This document shows positions 1 to 5,477 of a stretch of DNA of 5,477 bases, in pieces. The notes under the pieces were generated by a model. That model was not told the DNA's origin and did no database searches. It saw only the letters and a list, made by a program, of their open reading frames with translations. Both the position numbers and the translations under genes were made by a program. The stretch's first letter is position 1; every line of letters begins with the position of its first letter. Location: contig JACPWU010000017.1 of the NCBI GenBank assembly GCA_016196885.1, positions 1-5,477 of the forward strand, read 5' to 3'. The stretch is from Chlamydiota bacterium (GTDB lineage: Bacteria; Auribacterota; JACPWU01).

Positions 1-1
1 T

Positions 2-238
2 ATTCAGGCTCCCCCTGCGATTGCCTATTTTGTGGGAGATGATGGCTATTTGGTGACAGAGGCATTAGAGGCCTTTCCTGTTCCTGCTGGAAGGGAATTG
101 ACGCATGAACAAAGATTAGATCTTGTGACCTTAATTCTTCTAACAGGATTAAGCGATGTATACCCCCGCAATCTTTTGGTTCCCTTGGGTTCGCCTTCTT
201 CGGTGATTTACGCTGTCGACTTTGCACGGCTCGAACCG
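2..238 (+). other. Domain: protein-kinase-like / PI3-PI4-kinase-like catalytic core (only the part inside the window; the N-lobe would lie upstream)
   Basis: The translation reads ...AYFVGDDGYLVTEALEAFPV...HEQRLDLVTLILLTGLSDVYPRNLLVPLGSPSSVIYAVDFARLEP. DVYPRN (nt 155-172) has the D-x2-P-x-N / D-x4-N spacing of the kinase catalytic loop (compare DLKPEN, or DRHxxN in PI3/4K). It is followed by hydrophobic LLV and, 16 residues after the Asn, by VDFA (nt 215-226), which is DFG-like. The preceding hydrophobic helix ending in a G-containing turn resembles the YvLGiGDRH context of PI3/4-kinases. This is motif-level evidence only. Confidence 0.4.
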
Positions 239-3200
239 GATGATTGGCTTAAGCTACTCGAGAAGCTTTATATGTTAAGTACGTTAAGGTTGGGTCAGGA
301 ATGGGATTCCTCTCCAGATCTATGGGAGAGTGGGCTATCGCAATTATGTCCTTTTCTGAATGTCAAATCTTTCGAAGAAAATGAAGCGGTTTTAGAGGCC
401 GCTTTCGAAAGGTTTGAAGACCCGGCCGCCCTTCGTGATTTAGTTTGGAGAATTGGACAGCGATTGCGATCGGCCAATTTTCCCCCAGCAGAGGTTGAGC
501 AATATCTCGGACATCTTCAGGATAACTTTGAAGTAATGCTAAAAATTTTGCTCAGGATCTTTAATGAAGGAAATATTCTCATTCGGCGGTATATTCAGCC
601 AGATAATGAACATTCCCATTTTGAACTTTTGAGATATGTCGATGGCAAGGATTTTTCGGTGACATTAATGGGCGAGGAGGGTGAGTCTAAAACTTTTACA
701 GATCCTAAGCTGGTTCGGGAGTGGATAAGCTCCACGAAGGATCAGGGTACAGGAACCAGGATCCAGCAGCCAGAAAAAGAAAATGTCAAGGCTTATTCTT
801 TAGGCCTGGGAGATGGCCAGTCCATTACGCTTCAACTGGCGGGCCATTTCCAGCAAGGGTATCAGAGTGCTGAAGAGTGGGAAGCTTTACTAGAGCAAGC
901 GCTAGCGAGGGAGGGAAGATCGTTAACAGATCTTGCCCAGCTTCCAGATCGAACCCTGACGATTATTTTGGCGGATACCTACACACATCTTGCTGGAAAT
1001 TGCACAAAAGATGGCATTGTTATTCTGGATCGAAAAATTTTCGAGAGGCCAAAGAAGTTTTTTGAAAATAATTCTGCTGCGGCTGCTGTGGTAAGTCAAA
1101 TTCTTGTCCTTTCCTCTCTAGCGCATGAGCTAGGAGCCCATGAGTTGACGGGGGAAGGGAATGAAGCGCATACCCCAGAGCGTCATGAAAAAGATCTGGC
1201 CAATCTTGTTGCCTTTGCAGGTAAAGATTATCATTTGTCGGTCTTAGGCCAATTCTTAAGTCAGCCGGGTTTGCTTGTCCATCCTCTTGGTATTGAGAAA
1301 CTGATCAAAAAGAAATTTCTAAAATCCCCGTTCTTTAACGTTCTCGTCATTTCAGCTTTTGCTGTTGTGTTTTATTATTTGGGATTCATGTCTCTTGGTT
1401 TTGAATCGGGCATATGGAAGTGGGTGGAGCATTACGGCGAAGGCATGTTTAATTTTGTTTTTTTCTCTATTCTTTCCGATGCGCTGACGAAGAGAAGTTT
1501 GAATAAACCTATCAGCCACGACAGTATTTTTGGAGCCTCAAAATCAGGTTTAATCTCGGGGCTTTTTGCGATGACCTTTATTGATTTGATTAATTTGATT
1601 CCTGGTATTCCGGGTGCGATTTTGCGGCCTCTACTTATCACCGTTTTATTGGCATGGATTAGAACCAAAATCATGCGTATTTTTATTCGGACCGAAGATG
1701 AGAAGAAAGAAAAGGGACATCAAAACAAGAAAGAAAAAACGCAAGAAGAAAAGGATAAGGACAACCGTCAAGATGAGATGTATTGGCAGAGCAGATCTTG
1801 GGCGCTCATCAAGAATGGCATTGTTCAAAATTTGCCTTATGTGATGCGGGGTCCAATAGAGTCCGCCGCTACTCAATGGTTTCAGCAATACTTTAGTTCG
1901 GCGTTGCATTTACAGAGACCTTCTCTTGTTTCAAGACCTGATTGGTTTAAGGCCATTCAAGGTGTCTTTAAACATCGCGGCCTTTCCCTCATCGTTTATG
2001 GTTTTCTTGAACCTCTTGGAGTGGGGGTGATTTATGTTTTGAAAGGATTGAATCAGATCAGGTATTTAGTCGTTTCCGGATTCGTTCGAGAGTTAATCAA
2101 TACCCTTCTGAAATGGGGAAGACAAAAATTACCCGCTCTGAAAAGTCACATCGGTGCGGTCCTTCTCAGGTTAGACAAACGCCTTCCCAAGGGATTTTTC
2201 TTCAATGGCATCGTCATTACTGTTTTTGGTGTTTTGTTTTATTCATTGGGTTTGATGACCGTGGATAACACAGATGTTCTTTGGAAATGGGTCGAATACA
2301 CGTTGGAAAATGTTTTCACTTTCACTTTCTTCTCTGTTTTATCGGATATTTTGGCCAAAAGAAGCATAAATGAACCGCTTTCGCGTCGTGCGTTTTGGGG
2401 GGCAGTAGCTTCGGGTGCGATTAATGGGGTAGTTACGATTATATTCTTCGCCTTGATTAACTTCATTCCAGGCCCAAAAGGTTTTACTGCTTTCGTCAGG
2501 ATGATTTTAGTCATGTTCGCGTTGGTTCCATCGAGAAATCGGATTTATCGCCTCCTCTTTCATGTTGAAGGGAAGGAAAAGAAAAAAGGAGATATCGCTA
2601 ATCGTGAATATGAAATGTTTTTCATGAGTCGGCCATTCTCTTTTGTCAAAAACTCTCTGATTCAGGGTTTTTTACCTTTGGCATTGCGTGGGGGCGCCGA
2701 ATCCTTGGTGAATCAATATTTTCAGCAATATTTTGCCTGGGCGCTCAATGTTGATAAACCTTCTCTTGTGAATCGGCCGGACTGGTTGGGTGCGATTCAA
2801 AGATTTGTAAGGTATCGGTGGGTCGCCTTAATAATCTATACTTTCATTGCGTTTCCTCATTATTGTATGAGTGGTTGGTTACTGGGTAATCGCGTCAGTA
2901 AAGTTCAATCACAAACTTCTGGTCGTGACAAAAAATCTGGGATGAGAAAAGGAAATCTTTTCATGTGTCTCTACGATTTTATTGAACAAGAGAGAGTCTC
3001 TCCTAATTTTTCTGTGACTGCACGAGAGTTTCAGGAACATTTAGAGAAATTTTGGCCACCTCAAAGGCGGTTTTCTCGTTCTACGATTCAGAATGAACTT
3101 CGAGGGCTTTGGCAAATAGGTTTCTTAGAAAGGGAGAGGGTGGGTCGTTCTTATCGGTATACCTTGCCTTCTTGGTTGAAAAAAGCAGCTCATTTCCTAC

Positions 3201-5476
3201 CAGCCTATGAATGGGAAAAGAAATTGAATCCAGATGATCCCCATGCCCTTCCTCGCTTGAAGGTGCTTCAGATTTGGCGTCTACGTAGCCCTGAGCAAAG
3301 AGAGGCGCTTTTGCAAGTTGTTGAACAATGGAAAAAAGCTCTCGAATTTTCTGAAGACACTATCCCTAATGATCAGGACGGGCTTTTGAGTACCTTGCTT
3401 CGTTTTGATATAAAAAATGAAGCCTATTTAAATGAAGTTTATGGAGTTTATGCTTCGAATGAATACTCAGAAGAGATGGGAGCAGATTTTCGAGGATATA
3501 AAGGCTATGCAGCACTTTATGACTTAATCCTTTACTATTTAAAACGATATGCCTCTCCTCTCACAGGTAAACGCATTTTAGAAGTGGGCCCCGGATCAGG
3601 AGTGTTCCTACTGGCCCTGAGAGATTTTGGAGTGAGAGTGGAAGGTCTAGAAATGAATTCAGAGCTCGTTACACTTGCTCGAAGTCAGGGGCTGGCGGTA
3701 ACGGAGGGAAATCTTCGCTCTCCGCCGGAAACCCTGTTAAGAGAACCTTACGATATCACCTTCAGTCATTACGTTCTGGATGTTCCTGTCATTGAGGCTC
3801 ACGAAGAAGAACTCACTCCAGAGGTGCACACCCAGGGTCTTCAAATGCTTGAGCAACTCGCCCGCTTAACCAAAATGGGGGGCCTGAGTATTCATCAAAC
3901 CGAGAGAGGATGGCCTTTTAAGGATGAAGATGTGATCCATGCAGGCTTTGAAATTCTTGACGGTGGTGTGTCTTATGGTTTTATGGTGTTAAGGCGTGTG
4001 GCCCCTAAAATCGTCACAGAATTTTCAAATGCCTTGGATGAATTTGAAAGAGATTTTGGAGAATGGGAAGAGGCATCAAAAAATTGGGATGGGCCAGCGG
4101 CACGAGATTATATGGATGGGTGGGGGAAGTGGGTCGAAGACAAGCAAAATAGATTTTTCCTGCCTTGGGGAAAGGGTTGGGTGGTCCCTCGTTCCGAGAT
4201 AGCCGGGGTGCTAGAACCTCTGATGGTAAGATTTCTCCAACTCACCGAACGGGCTGCCTCTCTTTTTCAGCAGAAGGATTTAGATCCGAGCTTGACGGTC
4301 GGCCTTGCCTACATTCAGGCAGCGCATTTTTATCATTTTCTATGGGGGGACACGAATCGGGCTTTGGAATATTACGCCCATGCGCCTGAAACCCAGCGAC
4401 AAGCGTATCTCATGATGTCTTTTGCAGCACCCCTTCTCCAGGCCTGGGGGGCGAGGCAACTTGAAGTATTGAATGGGATTGTCCGTCCCATTTCTTCCAA
4501 CATCGCCTGCGGGACGATGACAGAAGAAAGCGATCGCATCTTGGGAATGCAGCTTGAGAGTCAGTTTAATTTGTTAAGGAATATTTATAACAGCGGGATC
4601 TCTCAGGATCTAAAAAGTTGGATCGAGTCTCAGTATCCTCAAGCCCCATTGAGAGAGGTCATCCCTAAAGGTGAGGCCTTGACAGAGTGGGAGGCCGATG
4701 TGGCCTTGTTCTTGAAAAGAGATTCAGGCTTGAGTTGGGAAGACGATTTTGAAACGCTTCAAAGCTTAAGAAGCAATATTCATGAATTAGCAGAGTATCA
4801 GGCAGTTCAAAAAAAGCTCGGTCGAGGCATTGAATTTTTCTTTGTCTCTCCTGAAACGGGGACCGAACTTTTCTGGGATTTATCGAGAGGTTTGGAAAAG
4901 GCAACTTATGCCGCTGGCCATCTGAATACCCGTCGCACCCGGATTTTTATTTCGCTCCCCATTGCTGTCAGTTATTCAGAGATTCCTCTGGAAATTGCCC
5001 GTCATGATTTGATACATGCGCTGAGGGATGTCCATGATCCTTCTTTGGACGAGAAAATGGAGGGGATCGCAGATTCAGATCGTCGGATGCTCGAGGTCAT
5101 GAGAAAAGACCCTGGGCATGGGACTTCAGAAGAGAAACACCCTGTCGGAAGTCAAGAAATGCCTCTCCGTGAAAAGGCCGTCTCCGGGAGCGACGCCTCT
5201 TCTCCTTTCGTTTTAGCTCAGGGGGGCGTTCCTTCGTCGGGTGTAGATGAACCGATCAGGGCGATTCATGCCCTTTTGAAGGCTTCAGACGAAGTTGGAT
5301 TTCGTACGCGAAAGATTTCGCTGGTGGATTTAAAAGCCCGTTTGTACCTGGCAAGCAACATTCAATTTGTTAAAGGGATGGAAAGAAAAGCATCCCTCCC
5401 AGGCTTGCTTCCCTTCTATCTCGAGGATCTGGGTGAAAGGGTCCCTCGCTTCAATGATTATTTACGAGCGCTGCTC
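2..5476 (+). CDS. Internal fragment of a single giant multidomain ORF (>=1825 codons, truncated by both window edges); predicted membrane-anchored mosaic protein
   Basis: Hand translation of + frame 2 from nt 2 (ATT CAG GCT...) to nt 5476 (...GCG CTG CTC) meets no stop codon. At uniform composition about 85 stops would be expected in 1825 codons (3/64 per codon). The other five frames are fragmented; the longest Met-ORF in the track is 91 aa. None of the track's + ORFs (starts 877, 1614, 3996, 4165) is in frame 2. The translation contains coherent protein motifs: ILEVGPGSG, hydrophobic helices, and an internal protein-level duplication. No start codon or RBS can be assigned because the ORF enters the window already open. 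Confidence 0.93.
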   Translation, partial: MQAPPAIAYFVGDDGYLVTEALEAFPVPAGRELTHEQRLDLVTLILLTGLSDVYPRNLLVPLGSPSSVIYAVDFARLEPDDWLKLLEKLYMLSTLRLGQEWDSSPDLWESGLSQLCPFLNVKSFEENEAVLEAAFERFEDPAALRDLVWRIGQRLRSANFPPAEVEQYLGHLQDNFEVMLKILLRIFNEGNILIRRYIQPDNEHSHFELLRYVDGKDFSVTLMGEEGESKTFTDPKLVREWISSTKDQGTGTRIQQPEKENVKAYSLGLGDGQSITLQLAGHFQQGYQSAEEWEALLEQALAREGRSLTDLAQLPDRTLTIILADTYTHLAGNCTKDGIVILDRKIFERPKKFFENNSAAAAVVSQILVLSSLAHELGAHELTGEGNEAHTPERHEKDLANLVAFAGKDYHLSVLGQFLSQPGLLVHPLGIEKLIKKKFLKSPFFNVLVISAFAVVFYYLGFMSLGFESGIWKWVEHYGEGMFNFVFFSILSDALTKRSLNKPISHDSIFGASKSGLISGLFAMTFIDLINLIPGIPGAILRPLLITVLLAWIRTKIMRIFIRTEDEKKEKGHQNKKEKTQEEKDKDNRQDEMYWQSRSWALIKNGIVQNLPYVMRGPIESAATQWFQQYFSSALHLQRPSLVSRPDWFKAIQGVFKHRGLSLIVYGFLEPLGVGVIYVLKGLNQIRYLVVSGFVRELINTLLKWGRQKLPALKSHIGAVLLRLDKRLPKGFFFNGIVITVFGVLFYSLGLMTVDNTDVLWKWVEYTLENVFTFTFFSVLSDILAKRSINEPLSRRAFWGAVASGAINGVVTIIFFALINFIPGPKGFTAFVRMILVMFALVPSRNRIYRLLFHVEGKEKKKGDIANREYEMFFMSRPFSFVKNSLIQGFLPLALRGGAESLVNQYFQQYFAWALNVDKPSLVNRPDWLGAIQRFVRYRWVALIIYTFIAFPHYCMSGWLLGNRVSKVQSQTSGRDKKSGMRKGNLFMCLYDFIEQERVSPNFSVTAREFQEHLEKFWPPQRRFSRSTIQNELRGLWQIGFLERERVGRSYRYTLPSWLKKAAHFLPAYEWEKKLNPDDPHALPRLKVLQIWRLRSPEQREALLQVVEQWKKALEFSEDTIPNDQDGLLSTLLRFDIKNEAYLNEVYGVYASNEYSEEMGADFRGYKGYAALYDLILYYLKRYASPLTGKRILEVGPGSGVFLLALRDFGVRVEGLEMNSELVTLARSQGLAVTEGNLRSPPETLLREPYDITFSHYVLDVPVIEAHEEELTPEVHTQGLQMLEQLARLTKMGGLSIHQTERGWPFKDEDVIHAGFEILDGGVSYGFMVLRRVAPKIVTEFSNALDEFERDFGEWEEASKNWDGPAARDYMDGWGKWVEDKQNRFFLPWGKGWVVPRSEIAGVLEPLMVRFLQLTERAASLFQQKDLDPSLTVGLAYIQAAHFYHFLWGDTNRALEYYAHAPETQRQAYLMMSFAAPLLQAWGARQLEVLNGIVRPISSNIACGTMTEESDRILGMQLESQFNLLRNIYNSGISQDLKSWIESQYPQAPLREVIPKGEALTEWEADVALFLKRDSGLSWEDDFETLQSLRSNIHELAEYQAVQKKLGRGIEFFFVSPETGTELFWDLSRGLEKATYAAGHLNTRRTRIFISLPIAVSYSEIPLEIARHDLIHALRDVHDPSLDEKMEGIADSDRRMLEVMRKDPGHGTSEEKHPVGSQEMPLREKAVSGSDASSPFVLAQGGVPSSGVDEPIRAIHALLKASDEVGFRTRKISLVDLKARLYLASNIQFVKGMERKASLPGLLPFYLEDLGERVPRFNDYLRALL
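950..1195 (+). other. Domain: possible minimal zincin-like (metallopeptidase-like) module with non-canonical HELGAH(E) motif
   Basis: The translation reads RTLTIILADTYTHLAGNCTKDGIVILDRKIFERPKKFFENNSAAAAVVSQILVLSSLAHELGAHELTGEGNEAHTPERHEKD. It shows the pattern beta-strand, AG-x turn, beta-strand (GIVILD), helix ending in a His-Glu motif, which is typical of small zincin folds. The motif at nt 1124-1141 is H-E-L-G-A-H (HExxxH), one residue longer than canonical HExxH. Downstream acidic residues (E, E, E) could supply a third ligand. Confidence 0.3.
1331..2005 (+). repeat. Protein-level tandem repeat, copy A: polytopic membrane module (about 4 hydrophobic spans, a charged soluble insert, then a fifth hydrophobic span)
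   Basis: Sequence: FFNVLVISAFAVVFYYLGFMSLGFESGIWKWVEHYGEGMFNFVFFSILSDALTKRSLNKPISHDSIFGASKSGLISGLFAMTFIDLINLIPGIPGAILRPLLITVLLAWIRTKIMRIFIRTE-[K/E linker]-MYWQSRSWALIKNGIVQNLPYVMRGPIESAATQWFQQYFSSALHLQRPSLVSRPDWFKAIQGVFKHRGLSLIVYGF. It aligns along its full length with copy B. Shared blocks are FFN, FY.LG.M, WKWVE, F.F.FFS.LSD.L.KRS.N.P, SG.I.G, LIN.IPG, E(M)..SR, KN..Q, FQQYF..AL...PSLV.RPDW..AIQ, LI.Y.F. Confidence 0.85.
1694..1777 (+). other. Lys/Glu-rich low-complexity linker encoded by a polypurine tract
   Basis: The 28 residues EDEKKEKGHQNKKEKTQEEKDKDNRQDE are encoded by almost pure A/G (gaagatgagaagaaagaaaagggacatcaaaacaagaaagaaaaaacgcaagaagaaaaggataagg...). The equivalent linker in copy B (nt 2567-2614, EGKEKKKGDIANREYE) is 12 residues shorter. 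Confidence 0.7.
2198..2846 (+). repeat. Protein-level tandem repeat, copy B of the polytopic membrane module
   Basis: Sequence: FFNGIVITVFGVLFYSLGLMTVDNTDVLWKWVEYTLENVFTFTFFSVLSDILAKRSINEPLSRRAFWGAVASGAINGVVTIIFFALINFIPGPKGFTAFVRMILVMFALVPSRNRIYRLLFHVE-[short K/E linker]-MFFMSRPFSFVKNSLIQGFLPLALRGGAESLVNQYFQQYFAWALNVDKPSLVNRPDWLGAIQRFVRYRWVALIIYTF. The offset to copy A is 867 nt at the start and 840 nt at the end; the net 9-codon difference is +2, -12, +1. By eye, identity is roughly 40% in the membrane part and roughly 55% in the FQQYF...PDW part. Residual nucleotide identity remains: accttctcttgt at 1918-1929 and 2758-2769, and tttcagcaata at 1880-1890 and 2720-2730. Confidence 0.85.
2954..3166 (+). 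other. Domain: winged-helix-turn-helix-like module (MarR/ArsR/PadR-style)
   Basis: The translation reads NLFMCLYDFIEQERVSPNFSVTAREFQEHLEKFWPPQRRFSRSTIQNELRGLWQIGFLERERVGRSYRYTL. It shows helix 1 (LYDFIEQE), helix 2 (TAREFQEHL), and a recognition-type helix (RSTIQNELRGLWQIGFLERE). A basic beta-hairpin wing (RVGRSYRYTL) follows, which is the usual ...GlveRe..Gr...Y.lt signature. Pattern recognition only. Confidence 0.45.
3494..4000 (+). other. Domain: class I (Rossmann-fold) SAM-dependent methyltransferase
   Basis: Motif I is GKRILEVGPGSGVFLLAL (nt 3566-3619; core ILEVGPGSG at nt 3575-3601). The acidic end of beta-2 is VRVEGLEMNSELVTLARSQGL. The beta-4 block is PYDITFSHYVLDV. The later block LQMLEQLARLTKMGGLSIH matches the usual L..l.rlLkpGG.l pattern. 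The order and spacing match the Methyltransf_11/25-type fold. The substrate cannot be inferred. Confidence 0.8.
4061..4180 (+). other. Trp-rich acidic segment
   Basis: EWEEASKNWDGPAARDYMDGWGKWVEDKQNRFFLPWGKGW contains 6 Trp in 40 residues, several in G-W/K-W/W-G contexts. This is a compositional observation only. Confidence 0.5.
4292..4390 (+). other. Possible single TPR-like helical hairpin
   Basis: LTVGLAYIQAAHFYHFLWGDTNRALEYYAHAPE is 33 aa, with small and aromatic positions resembling the TPR consensus (A..a..y...gd...Al.yY..A). The flanking sequence looks helical, but further repeats are not obvious. Confidence 0.25.
4826..5038 (+). other. Domain: second possible zincin-like module with HDLIHALRDVH motif (metzincin-like His spacing, Glu replaced by Asp)
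   Basis: The translation reads GIEFFFVSPETGTELFWDLSRGLEKATYAAGHLNTRRTRIFISLPIAVSYSEIPLEIARHDLIHALRDVHD. It has the same strand / AG-x turn / strand (RIFISL) / helix layout as the module at 950-1195. At nt 5003-5035 the motif H-D-L-I-H-A-L-R-D-V-H places His at positions 1, 5 and 11, as in metzincin HExxHxxGxxH. However, it has Asp for the catalytic Glu and Arg for the Gly. Confidence 0.3.
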
Positions 5477-5477
5477 A

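Follow-up and report, generated by a model that had tools for sequence, protein, structure and literature searches.

What does a reading frame encode when it fills an entire contig and runs off both of its ends, and why does it carry the same membrane segment twice? The question is raised by contig JACPWU010000017.1 of assembly GCA_016196885.1, a metagenome-assembled genome (MAG) labelled Chlamydiae by its submitter, and by the 5477 nucleotides of it (positions 1-5477, hereafter the window) analysed here. The protein encoded is a fragment of a much larger multi-domain protein, and nt 1307-2944 very probably represent two tandem copies of one integral-membrane domain within this single, very long polypeptide. 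The domain defines a new and rare membrane domain family, found within an already described kind of protein, namely the giant multi-enzyme proteins studded with transmembrane helices. The preferred explanation, in which the domain is a cassette that embeds such proteins in the inner membrane and docks their enzymes there, is given a probability of about 0.5 when taken as a whole; its mechanistic part, docking by single or fused paired modules, is the function we infer and is put forward more tentatively. The elements on which the argument turns are the following.

2-5476, + strand: single open reading frame (ORF), cut at both ends (frame +2, 1825 codons, stop-free).

1307-2173, + strand: repeat unit 1 (aa 436-724, 289 aa), that is, module copy 1 and a 42-residue tail, delimited by the copy alignment, hmmsearch and the AlphaFold model.

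2174-2944, + strand: repeat unit 2 (aa 725-981), module copy 2, found by hmmsearch and showing the helix pattern of copy 1 in the two-copy model (predicted local confidence, pLDDT, ~80-90).

The ORF itself is beyond reasonable dispute. At the composition of the window, a stop-free frame +2 is expected by chance with a probability of ~1e-47, and the other five frames hold 78-114 stops each. A standard ORF listing shows no long ORF because the real one runs off both window ends. The translation is identical to the NCBI entry 'MAG: hypothetical protein HYS08_10590, partial [Chlamydiae bacterium]', whose contig measures 5478 bp; the window thus covers practically all of that contig, and 1825 aa is a lower bound for the length of the protein.

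Within this protein, a first-pass annotation read from the letters of the window had described an internal tandem duplication, with two segments aligning end to end, and this description is borne out. Between aa 444-668 (nt 1331-2005) and aa 733-949 (nt 2198-2846), 98 of 213 aligned residues are identical (46%), and the Smith-Waterman score is 472, to be compared with 33.2 ± 5.1 (maximum 64) for 300 composition-preserving shuffles (z ~85). Identity is 43% over the full repeat units (nt 1307-2173 versus 2174-2926), and homology reaches ~8 residues upstream of the ends first proposed, into a basic N-flank, and downstream into the final hydrophobic helix (aa 659-689 and 939-960). The two copies begin 867 nt apart, as measured between 1331-1390 and 2198-2257 (60 nt, 77% nucleotide identity), and the offset drops to 840 nt once a K/E-rich insertion of 12 codons in copy 1 and three additional codons in copy 2 have been passed, in agreement with the two offsets originally reported. 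The motifs listed for both copies are likewise present, namely WKWVE, SILSDALTKRS / SVLSDILAKRS, LIN.IPG, FQQYF and PSLV.RPDW.

The duplication is not recent. Aligned codons share 54% nucleotide identity, the proportion of synonymous differences (pS) is 0.83 (saturated) and that of non-synonymous differences (pN) is 0.35, and the repeat is no longer detected by Tandem Repeats Finder. Synonymous saturation combined with a restricted pN therefore indicates that the duplication is real, old and selectively maintained in both copies, and the constraint on both copies of a polytopic membrane unit of ~280-290 aa, as initially proposed, is seen in a pN well below pS. The two copies group with each other in 198 of 200 bootstrap trees, and the duplication therefore arose within this lineage, after its split from other family members. 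An old, lineage-specific duplication with both copies kept by purifying selection is thus held with great confidence. That there is no real feature, and that similar hydrophobic composition or an assembly or duplication artefact mimics one, is scarcely credible, since only the general caution that transmembrane segments resemble one another speaks for it, while the margin over the shuffles, the conserved non-hydrophobic motifs, the nucleotide identity with saturated synonymous sites (which exclude a recent or assembly duplication) and the existence of independent homologues in other samples all speak against it. A tandem duplication is in itself an ordinary evolutionary event, and the value of this one lies in the family that it defines and in the context of that family.

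Each unit can be divided into the parts listed below, with the coordinates of copy 1 given first.

1328-1378, + strand: helix 1 (TM1), aa 443-459; in copy 2, 2195-2245 (model helices, hydrophobicity).

1412-1498, + strand: helix 2, aa 471-499, with an interfacial start at WKWVE and an end at F..FFS.LSD.L.KRS; in copy 2, 2279-2365 (model, conservation).

1517-1684, + strand: helices 3 and 4, aa 506-532 and 541-561, with an uncharged IPGIPG turn and a basic RTKIMR end; in copy 2, 2384-2557 (model, hydrophobicity, charge).

1685-1774, + strand: charged K/E-rich linker of copy 1, aa 562-591 (copy alignment; +10/-10 charges).

1775-1969, + strand: conserved amphipathic block, aa 592-656; in copy 2, 2612-2809 (family conservation, hydrophobicity).

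1976-2068, + strand: last hydrophobic helix, H9, aa 659-689, with a YG.(I/L).P kink; in copy 2, 2816-2881 (conservation, hydrophobicity).

2078-2170, + strand: basic amphipathic tail helix of 31 residues, aa 693-723, specific to copy 1 and joining the copies (family alignments).

Judged by the Kyte-Doolittle scale and by a crude sum on the Hessa scale, both copies have four membrane-like helices (1, 3, 4 and H9), and helix 2 is marginally hydrophobic. The two helices 1 are the most hydrophobic segments of the protein; a basic flank stands before each of them (+4 in copy 1, +3 in copy 2), and in copy 1 an acidic loop lies between helix 1 and helix 2. Helix 2 carries an Asp that is invariant in the family (Asp493 in copy 1, Asp782 in copy 2). 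The K/E-rich linker is of low complexity and 12 residues longer in copy 1 than in copy 2, an extra length without parallel in most homologues. The amphipathic block, of sequence E.(Y/F)W.SR ... KN..VQ.LP ... Q.FQQYF ... PSLV.RPDW, forms three helices that are not transmembrane-like on hydrophobicity scales. H9 matches helices 3 and 4 in hydrophobicity and is broken at the Pro in the model of copy 2. The tail helix (charges +7/-1) is not transmembrane-like either; it is absent from copy 2 and from most homologues, and model confidence is very low just before it. A single-copy AlphaFold2 model of copy 1, computed from a 13-sequence family alignment, is all-helical and compact, with nine helices, a mean pLDDT of 82.6 and a predicted template-modelling score (pTM) of 0.75. 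In the two-copy model, the same helix pattern is found in copy 2; its scores are lower (pLDDT 69.6, pTM 0.48, linker pLDDT <50) and are limited by an alignment in which MAFFT placed all homologues on one copy, giving depth to copy 2 only, so that the model speaks neither for nor against a pseudo-dimer and its low pTM is not counted against packing of the copies.

How widespread is this module? An exhaustive search of 1.84 billion representative proteins with the two-copy profile retrieved 18 proteins at E ≤0.001. The window protein alone matched twice, and the other 17 representatives have one canonical copy each; likewise, a broader 13-sequence profile gives one strong copy per relative. Single-module homologues of the kind anticipated by the first-pass annotation, including a stand-alone gene (P0015), were thus recovered with a profile made from the two copies. 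Three short matches (P0010, P0011 and P0017) were considered as half modules bearing signal peptides and rejected, being fragments that start inside helix 4. In P0004, a second membrane segment (aa 980-1294) is bounded by GGRL/GARL peptides and shows a weak alignment with the module profile, covering helix 3 up to and including the VQ..LP / Q.Y block (hhalign E 3.5e-4, probability 37%). From this sequence similarity, P0004 may hold a second, very divergent copy, and more divergent paralogues may exist in giant proteins.

Conservation was counted per column of the family alignment. At the end of helix 2, Asp493 is found in 12/12 sequences, Phe488 and Leu495 in 11/12 and Arg498 in 9/12. In the amphipathic block, Arg598 and Pro612 are invariant (13/13), and Glu592 (12/13), Gln625 (11/13) and Trp595 (10/13) are nearly so; a basic residue at 589, Tyr630 and Pro671 (11/12) are also conserved. 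The family conserves neither a nucleophile (His, Cys or Ser) nor a motif for metal binding. The conserved buried Ser-Asp pair proposed at first is therefore only half retained: the Asp is invariant, the Ser is not conserved, and the position of the Asp is close to the membrane boundary, not deep within the bilayer.

The initial impression that the family is unrecognised has withstood every comparison made. With the whole window protein, Pfam and NCBIfam gave only sub-threshold methyltransferase and winged helix-turn-helix (wHTH) matches, which fall outside the module; no Pfam family recurred among 13 members searched with a limit of E 10; and the family profile found no match among PDB sequences. 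For the confident single-copy model, the best Foldseek match in the PDB has E 0.89 and template-modelling scores (TM-scores) stay ≤0.28, with nothing significant in BFVD; the two-copy model found no match in the PDB. The solved membrane-protein folds of the PDB thus offer no significant sequence-profile or structural match. The highest target-normalised TM-score of the single-module model among the PDB matches belongs to CysZ (6d79), of the CysZ/EI24 family (PF07264). The two share a general plan, CysZ being a bacterial inner-membrane protein of ~250 aa with transmembrane helices and hairpins that partly enter the membrane; however, the resemblance is at noise level (Foldseek E 7.2, TM-score 0.27/0.33; Pfam EI24 at E 2.2 in 1/13 members), and no motifs are shared. 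Several searches returned little. A word-indexed search with the 13-sequence profile found no match even though the family exists, and it is suspected that K/E-rich low-complexity words swamped the candidate list; a similar search with the whole window protein matched only itself. Among genome contigs, the window segment found no match and a closer alignment matched the P0002 locus only, and scans of metagenome contigs and viral contigs gave no match.

The proteins that host the module range from 681 to 6608 aa, many being partial. Most of them are giant multi-enzyme proteins of Candidatus Omnitrophota, in which the module usually forms a self-contained unit with unrelated soluble enzyme domains on either side. 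P0002 is a complete gene of a Candidatus Omnitrophota genome (L002, 1860-15758) encoding 4632 aa with transketolase/E1, Methyltransf_28 and RidA domains. P0004 (3853 aa) combines a 2-hydroxyacid dehydrogenase, E1 and a phosphoglucomutase; P0009 (6608 aa) combines phosphoglycerate kinase (PGK), SecA_DEAD and SecA_PP_bind; P0012 contains WD40 propellers; and in P0018 the module is followed by AceK. The window protein resembles other hosts only within aa ~391-983, the module being the sole shared part. The module flanks show no relation between hosts and no consistent neighbouring domain, and the module is therefore a discrete, shuffled cassette. A specific coupling to the downstream methyltransferase was considered and rejected, the post-module regions of the window protein and of P0002 being unrelated. 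P0015 shows the cassette as a gene of its own: it encodes 333 aa and has its own Shine-Dalgarno sequence (GAGGA), with an ATG 8 nt later, after an AceK gene ending in TAA (on L004, the AceK gene occupies 2-2632 and P0015 follows 14 nt downstream at 2646-3647). AceK, the isocitrate dehydrogenase kinase/phosphatase, is tied to the module twice in one clade, by fusion (P0018, aa 111-1007) and by gene adjacency (P0015). The contig of P0008 (L001, 2x coverage) shows overlapping ORFs and, at 3381-6010, a glutamate dehydrogenase that is divided between two neighbouring ORFs of one strand, which suggests frameshift errors; P0008 probably belongs to a larger fusion gene and is not a protein of normal size.

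This gallery of hosts matches a known kind of protein. Many transmembrane helices are interspersed in the giant multi-enzyme proteins of Omnitrophota described by West-Roberts et al. 2023 (bioRxiv 10.1101/2023.11.21.568195), and a class of 'multi-enzyme metabolic cluster' proteins has been defined by Nielsen & Lui 2026 (bioRxiv 10.64898/2026.06.07.730766). As in those giants, transmembrane helices lie among unrelated enzyme domains in the family hosts, which carry SecA_DEAD, phosphoglucomutase and methyltransferases, and the window protein joins an HExxH region, two transmembrane modules, a wHTH-like stretch and a methyltransferase-like domain in one frame. Internal repeats with decayed nucleotide similarity, as seen here, are reported to be typical of giant proteins (10.64898/2026.06.07.730766). 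There are also differences. Both papers count transmembrane helices and define no conserved transmembrane domain family, whereas the module is a cassette of ~240 aa that has invariant residues, exists as a stand-alone version and has been duplicated in tandem once; moreover, the window MAG is labelled Chlamydiae, and the window protein has a length of at least 1825 aa, to be set against the 10,000 aa or more of the literature classes.

The giant proteins of Omnitrophota and related bacteria of the Planctomycetes-Verrucomicrobia-Chlamydiae (PVC) group are among the longest known. Both papers ask how the domains of such proteins get to the membrane or are fastened to it, and leave the membrane insertion, organisation and possible cutting of the proteins open (10.1101/2023.11.21.568195; 10.64898/2026.06.07.730766). 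A recurrent cassette gives a concrete handle on this question: it marks where the polypeptide meets the membrane, and it is available as a stand-alone 333-aa protein (P0015) and as a naturally fused pair.

Which way does the cassette face? Lys and Arg residues on the N-flank and at the ends of helices 2 and 4 number 11 in copy 1 and 9 in copy 2, versus 1 and 2 in the two opposite loops. According to the positive-inside rule, basic loops face the cytoplasm; the same charge bias in both copies therefore predicts the same membrane orientation, with the basic side cytoplasmic. In this respect, the pair differs from the inverted-repeat duplications of membrane proteins, both of its copies having the same bias (11 versus 1 and 9 versus 2). 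SAM (S-adenosylmethionine)-, NAD- or ATP-dependent domains directly follow the module in the window protein, P0002, P0004 and P0018, which fits a cytoplasmic C-side. The invariant Asp stands 4-5 residues before the Lys/Arg that end helix 2, and hence close to the edge of the membrane; amphipathic helices that are not transmembrane-like hold the remaining invariant residues (Glu, Trp, Arg, Pro, Gln). In the simplest model, the chain would cross the membrane four times, and the amphipathic block and the kinked H9 would lie at, or dip into, the cytoplasmic leaflet. A likeness to chlamydial Inc proteins may be mentioned here, given the label of the MAG: helices 3 and 4 form a tight hydrophobic hairpin with an uncharged PG.PG turn. 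Inc proteins differ in that a bilobed hydrophobic domain is their only membrane element, while the module adds further hydrophobic helices (at least four in all) and a conserved amphipathic block, and its relatives are Omnitrophota giants; the N-terminus of the window protein, where Inc proteins carry a type III secretion signal, is missing from the contig.

On these grounds, the cassette is proposed to be a membrane-embedding and docking unit. Its helices would keep the enzyme domains next to them, which depend on cofactors, on the cytoplasmic side of the inner membrane. Where membrane and cytoplasm meet, a conserved charged site, formed by the Asp at the end of helix 2 and by the Glu, Trp and Arg of the first amphipathic helix, would stabilise the fold or bind a lipid head group or a partner. 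The tandem form would be a covalently fused pair of same-orientation modules, and single-copy modules may self-associate into such a pair. Docking is preferred because the conserved polar residues lie at one boundary and are not spread through the bilayer, because the cassette sits between unrelated soluble domains, and because nothing ties it to transport or catalysis. A general analogy for the fused pair is offered by SemiSWEET dimers and the 3+1+3 SWEETs, where, as here, a mostly single module occurs as a fused tandem pair in one lineage, with both copies retained. In SWEETs, a true transmembrane linker helix keeps the halves parallel. The module has no sequence or fold similarity to SWEETs, and the linker helix of its copy 1 is, in contrast, basic, amphipathic, not transmembrane-like and modelled with low confidence.

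Several points weigh against this proposal. The invariant Asp, Glu, Arg, Pro and Gln exceed the needs of a passive anchor. Five segments per copy (TM1, the marginal TM2, TM3, TM4 and H9) are hydrophobic enough for the membrane, and if all five cross, an odd count together with a tail that is not transmembrane-like would conflict with the same orientation of the copies. The two-copy model, at the pTM given above and with alignment depth on copy 2 only, shows no confident packing. Signal-peptide-like N-termini are present in several hosts (P0015, aa 1-30; P0018, aa 1-30; P0002, aa 1-45; P0016, aa 12-30), and in P0015 and P0018 no hydrophobic segment separates them from the module, which conflicts with the N-in orientation deduced from the positive-inside rule. 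As a separate observation, the signal-peptide-like N-terminus of P0002 would place ~3500 aa of cofactor-dependent enzymes outside the cell.

Among the other functions that can be imagined, a pseudo-symmetric transporter or channel survives best, though it is considered unlikely. Each module would then be half of a permeation path, with the helix 2 Asp and the Arg with which helix 4 begins as its lining; a relative with one copy would have to pair with itself, and the tandem pair would already be a dimer by fusion. Charged residues do occur in or next to hydrophobic helices (the 12/12 Asp and a nearly invariant Arg107 in a further family alignment), the nine-helix model with its pTM of 0.75 is compact, P0015 shows that the module can act alone, and fused tandem halves are common among transporters. 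However, Pfam (13 members), the PDB profile and Foldseek with both models (best E 0.9, TM-score ≤0.28) match no transporter or channel, at mid-membrane, helices 1, 3 and 4 conserve nothing but hydrophobicity, the polar residues that are invariant lie together at a single boundary and in helices without transmembrane character, and confident packing between copies is lacking in a model whose depth is on copy 2 only. The first-pass suggestion of a pseudo-symmetric pore, transporter or enzyme is unsupported on similar grounds: its Ser is not conserved, its Asp is near the boundary, the invariant residues are in non-transmembrane helices, and the other 17 representatives have a single copy.

A related scenario starts from short peptides that recur at domain junctions. 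G-[AG]-R-[LFM] occurs 10 times in P0002 and 11 times in P0004, versus ~0.3 expected; RSELR occurs 3 times in P0018, SSSP 4 times in P0007, and A-[AS]-S-L-G 2-4 times in P0012, P0014 and P0016. These peptides are lineage-specific and are located between Pfam domains; in several hosts they also flank the module at either end, and no such peptide could be found in the window protein. The codons under the GARL sites vary synonymously, the signal being therefore at the peptide level, and a nucleotide-level (RBS-like, that is, resembling a ribosome-binding site) origin of the motif is ruled out. Cleavage points in giant proteins are unknown according to West-Roberts et al. (10.1101/2023.11.21.568195), and a literature search retrieved no paper combining Omnitrophota with polyproteins. 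The junction peptides are candidate processing or cleavage sites. The module could then be a homodimeric transporter or interface enzyme of new fold, cleaved from a polyprotein at the bracketing peptides (G-A-R-L, RSELR, A-[AS]-S-L-G, SSSP), with the window carrying a fused dimer, a combination regarded as distinctly unlikely.

A membrane-interface enzyme is more doubtful again. The cluster of Asp, Glu, Arg, Gln and Tyr at the cytoplasmic boundary would be an active site for a lipid or a lipid-linked substrate, an idea in keeping with the location of several invariant polar residues at one boundary, with hosts that are chains of metabolic enzymes and with the double link to AceK, by fusion and by adjacency. 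It is countered by the lack of the conserved nucleophiles and metal-binding motif mentioned above, by the absence of similarity to any enzyme family (Foldseek, Pfam, PDB profile) and by the inconsistency of neighbouring domains across hosts.

The least probable of the functional alternatives is a topogenic or secretion-coupling element, which would set the side of the domains that follow or dock fused SecA-like ATPase domains. In P0009, SecA_DEAD and SecA_PP_bind lie a few hundred residues after the module, and according to West-Roberts et al. the SecA domains of giant proteins lack their usual membrane-anchoring parts and may be anchored by adjacent transmembrane regions (10.1101/2023.11.21.568195); the signal-peptide-like N-termini of P0002, P0015, P0016 and P0018 point the same way. 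Against this, a SecA-like domain is seen in one host only of the available sequences and is not present in the window protein, and P0015 has no SecA-like partner in its 4.9-kb contig.

Outside the module, three further features were located in the window protein.

1124-1141, + strand: HELGAH motif (HExxH type), from the translation, ~60 aa upstream of copy 1.

3014-3163, + strand: weak winged-helix-like (BlaI/MecI-like) match, aa 1005-1054 (Pfam Penicillinase_R, E 0.089, below threshold).

3509-3811, + strand: class I SAM-dependent methyltransferase-like domain, aa ~1170-1270 (sub-threshold family matches).

The methyltransferase-like stretch is matched by Methyltransf_23 (E 3.3e-5; 24.1 bits, cut-off 27) and by three other methyltransferase families; NCBIfam and PDB methyltransferase matches fall on the same stretch (aa ~1170-1270), and the methyltransferase motif I, ILEVGPGSG, is at nt 3575-3601. 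The HELGAH region has no Pfam or NCBIfam match and is not conserved upstream of the module in other hosts; a conserved HExxH domain beside the module had been considered, the window protein and P0006 being alike by eye there, and was dropped as BLAST gives no support. Scans of the window for Rfam families, tRNAs and long-period tandem repeats gave no match.

As to the origin of the DNA, the contig has no marker genes, and in contrast with the Chlamydiae label of the window MAG, the two named relatives and the P0002 genome are Candidatus Omnitrophota. Near the giant gene of P0002, in that Candidatus Omnitrophota MAG, lies a gene with a SWIB domain (L002, 20848-21102). In bacteria, SWIB domains are found mostly in Chlamydiae, and this gene may bear on the Chlamydiae label of the window MAG. 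Finally, a WKWVE-like peptide, GKWVED, occurs in the soluble C-terminal region (window 4125-4142, aa ~1375-1381), and 16/18 of its nucleotides are identical to the site 2283-2300 of copy 2, a recurrence that is possibly due to chance.

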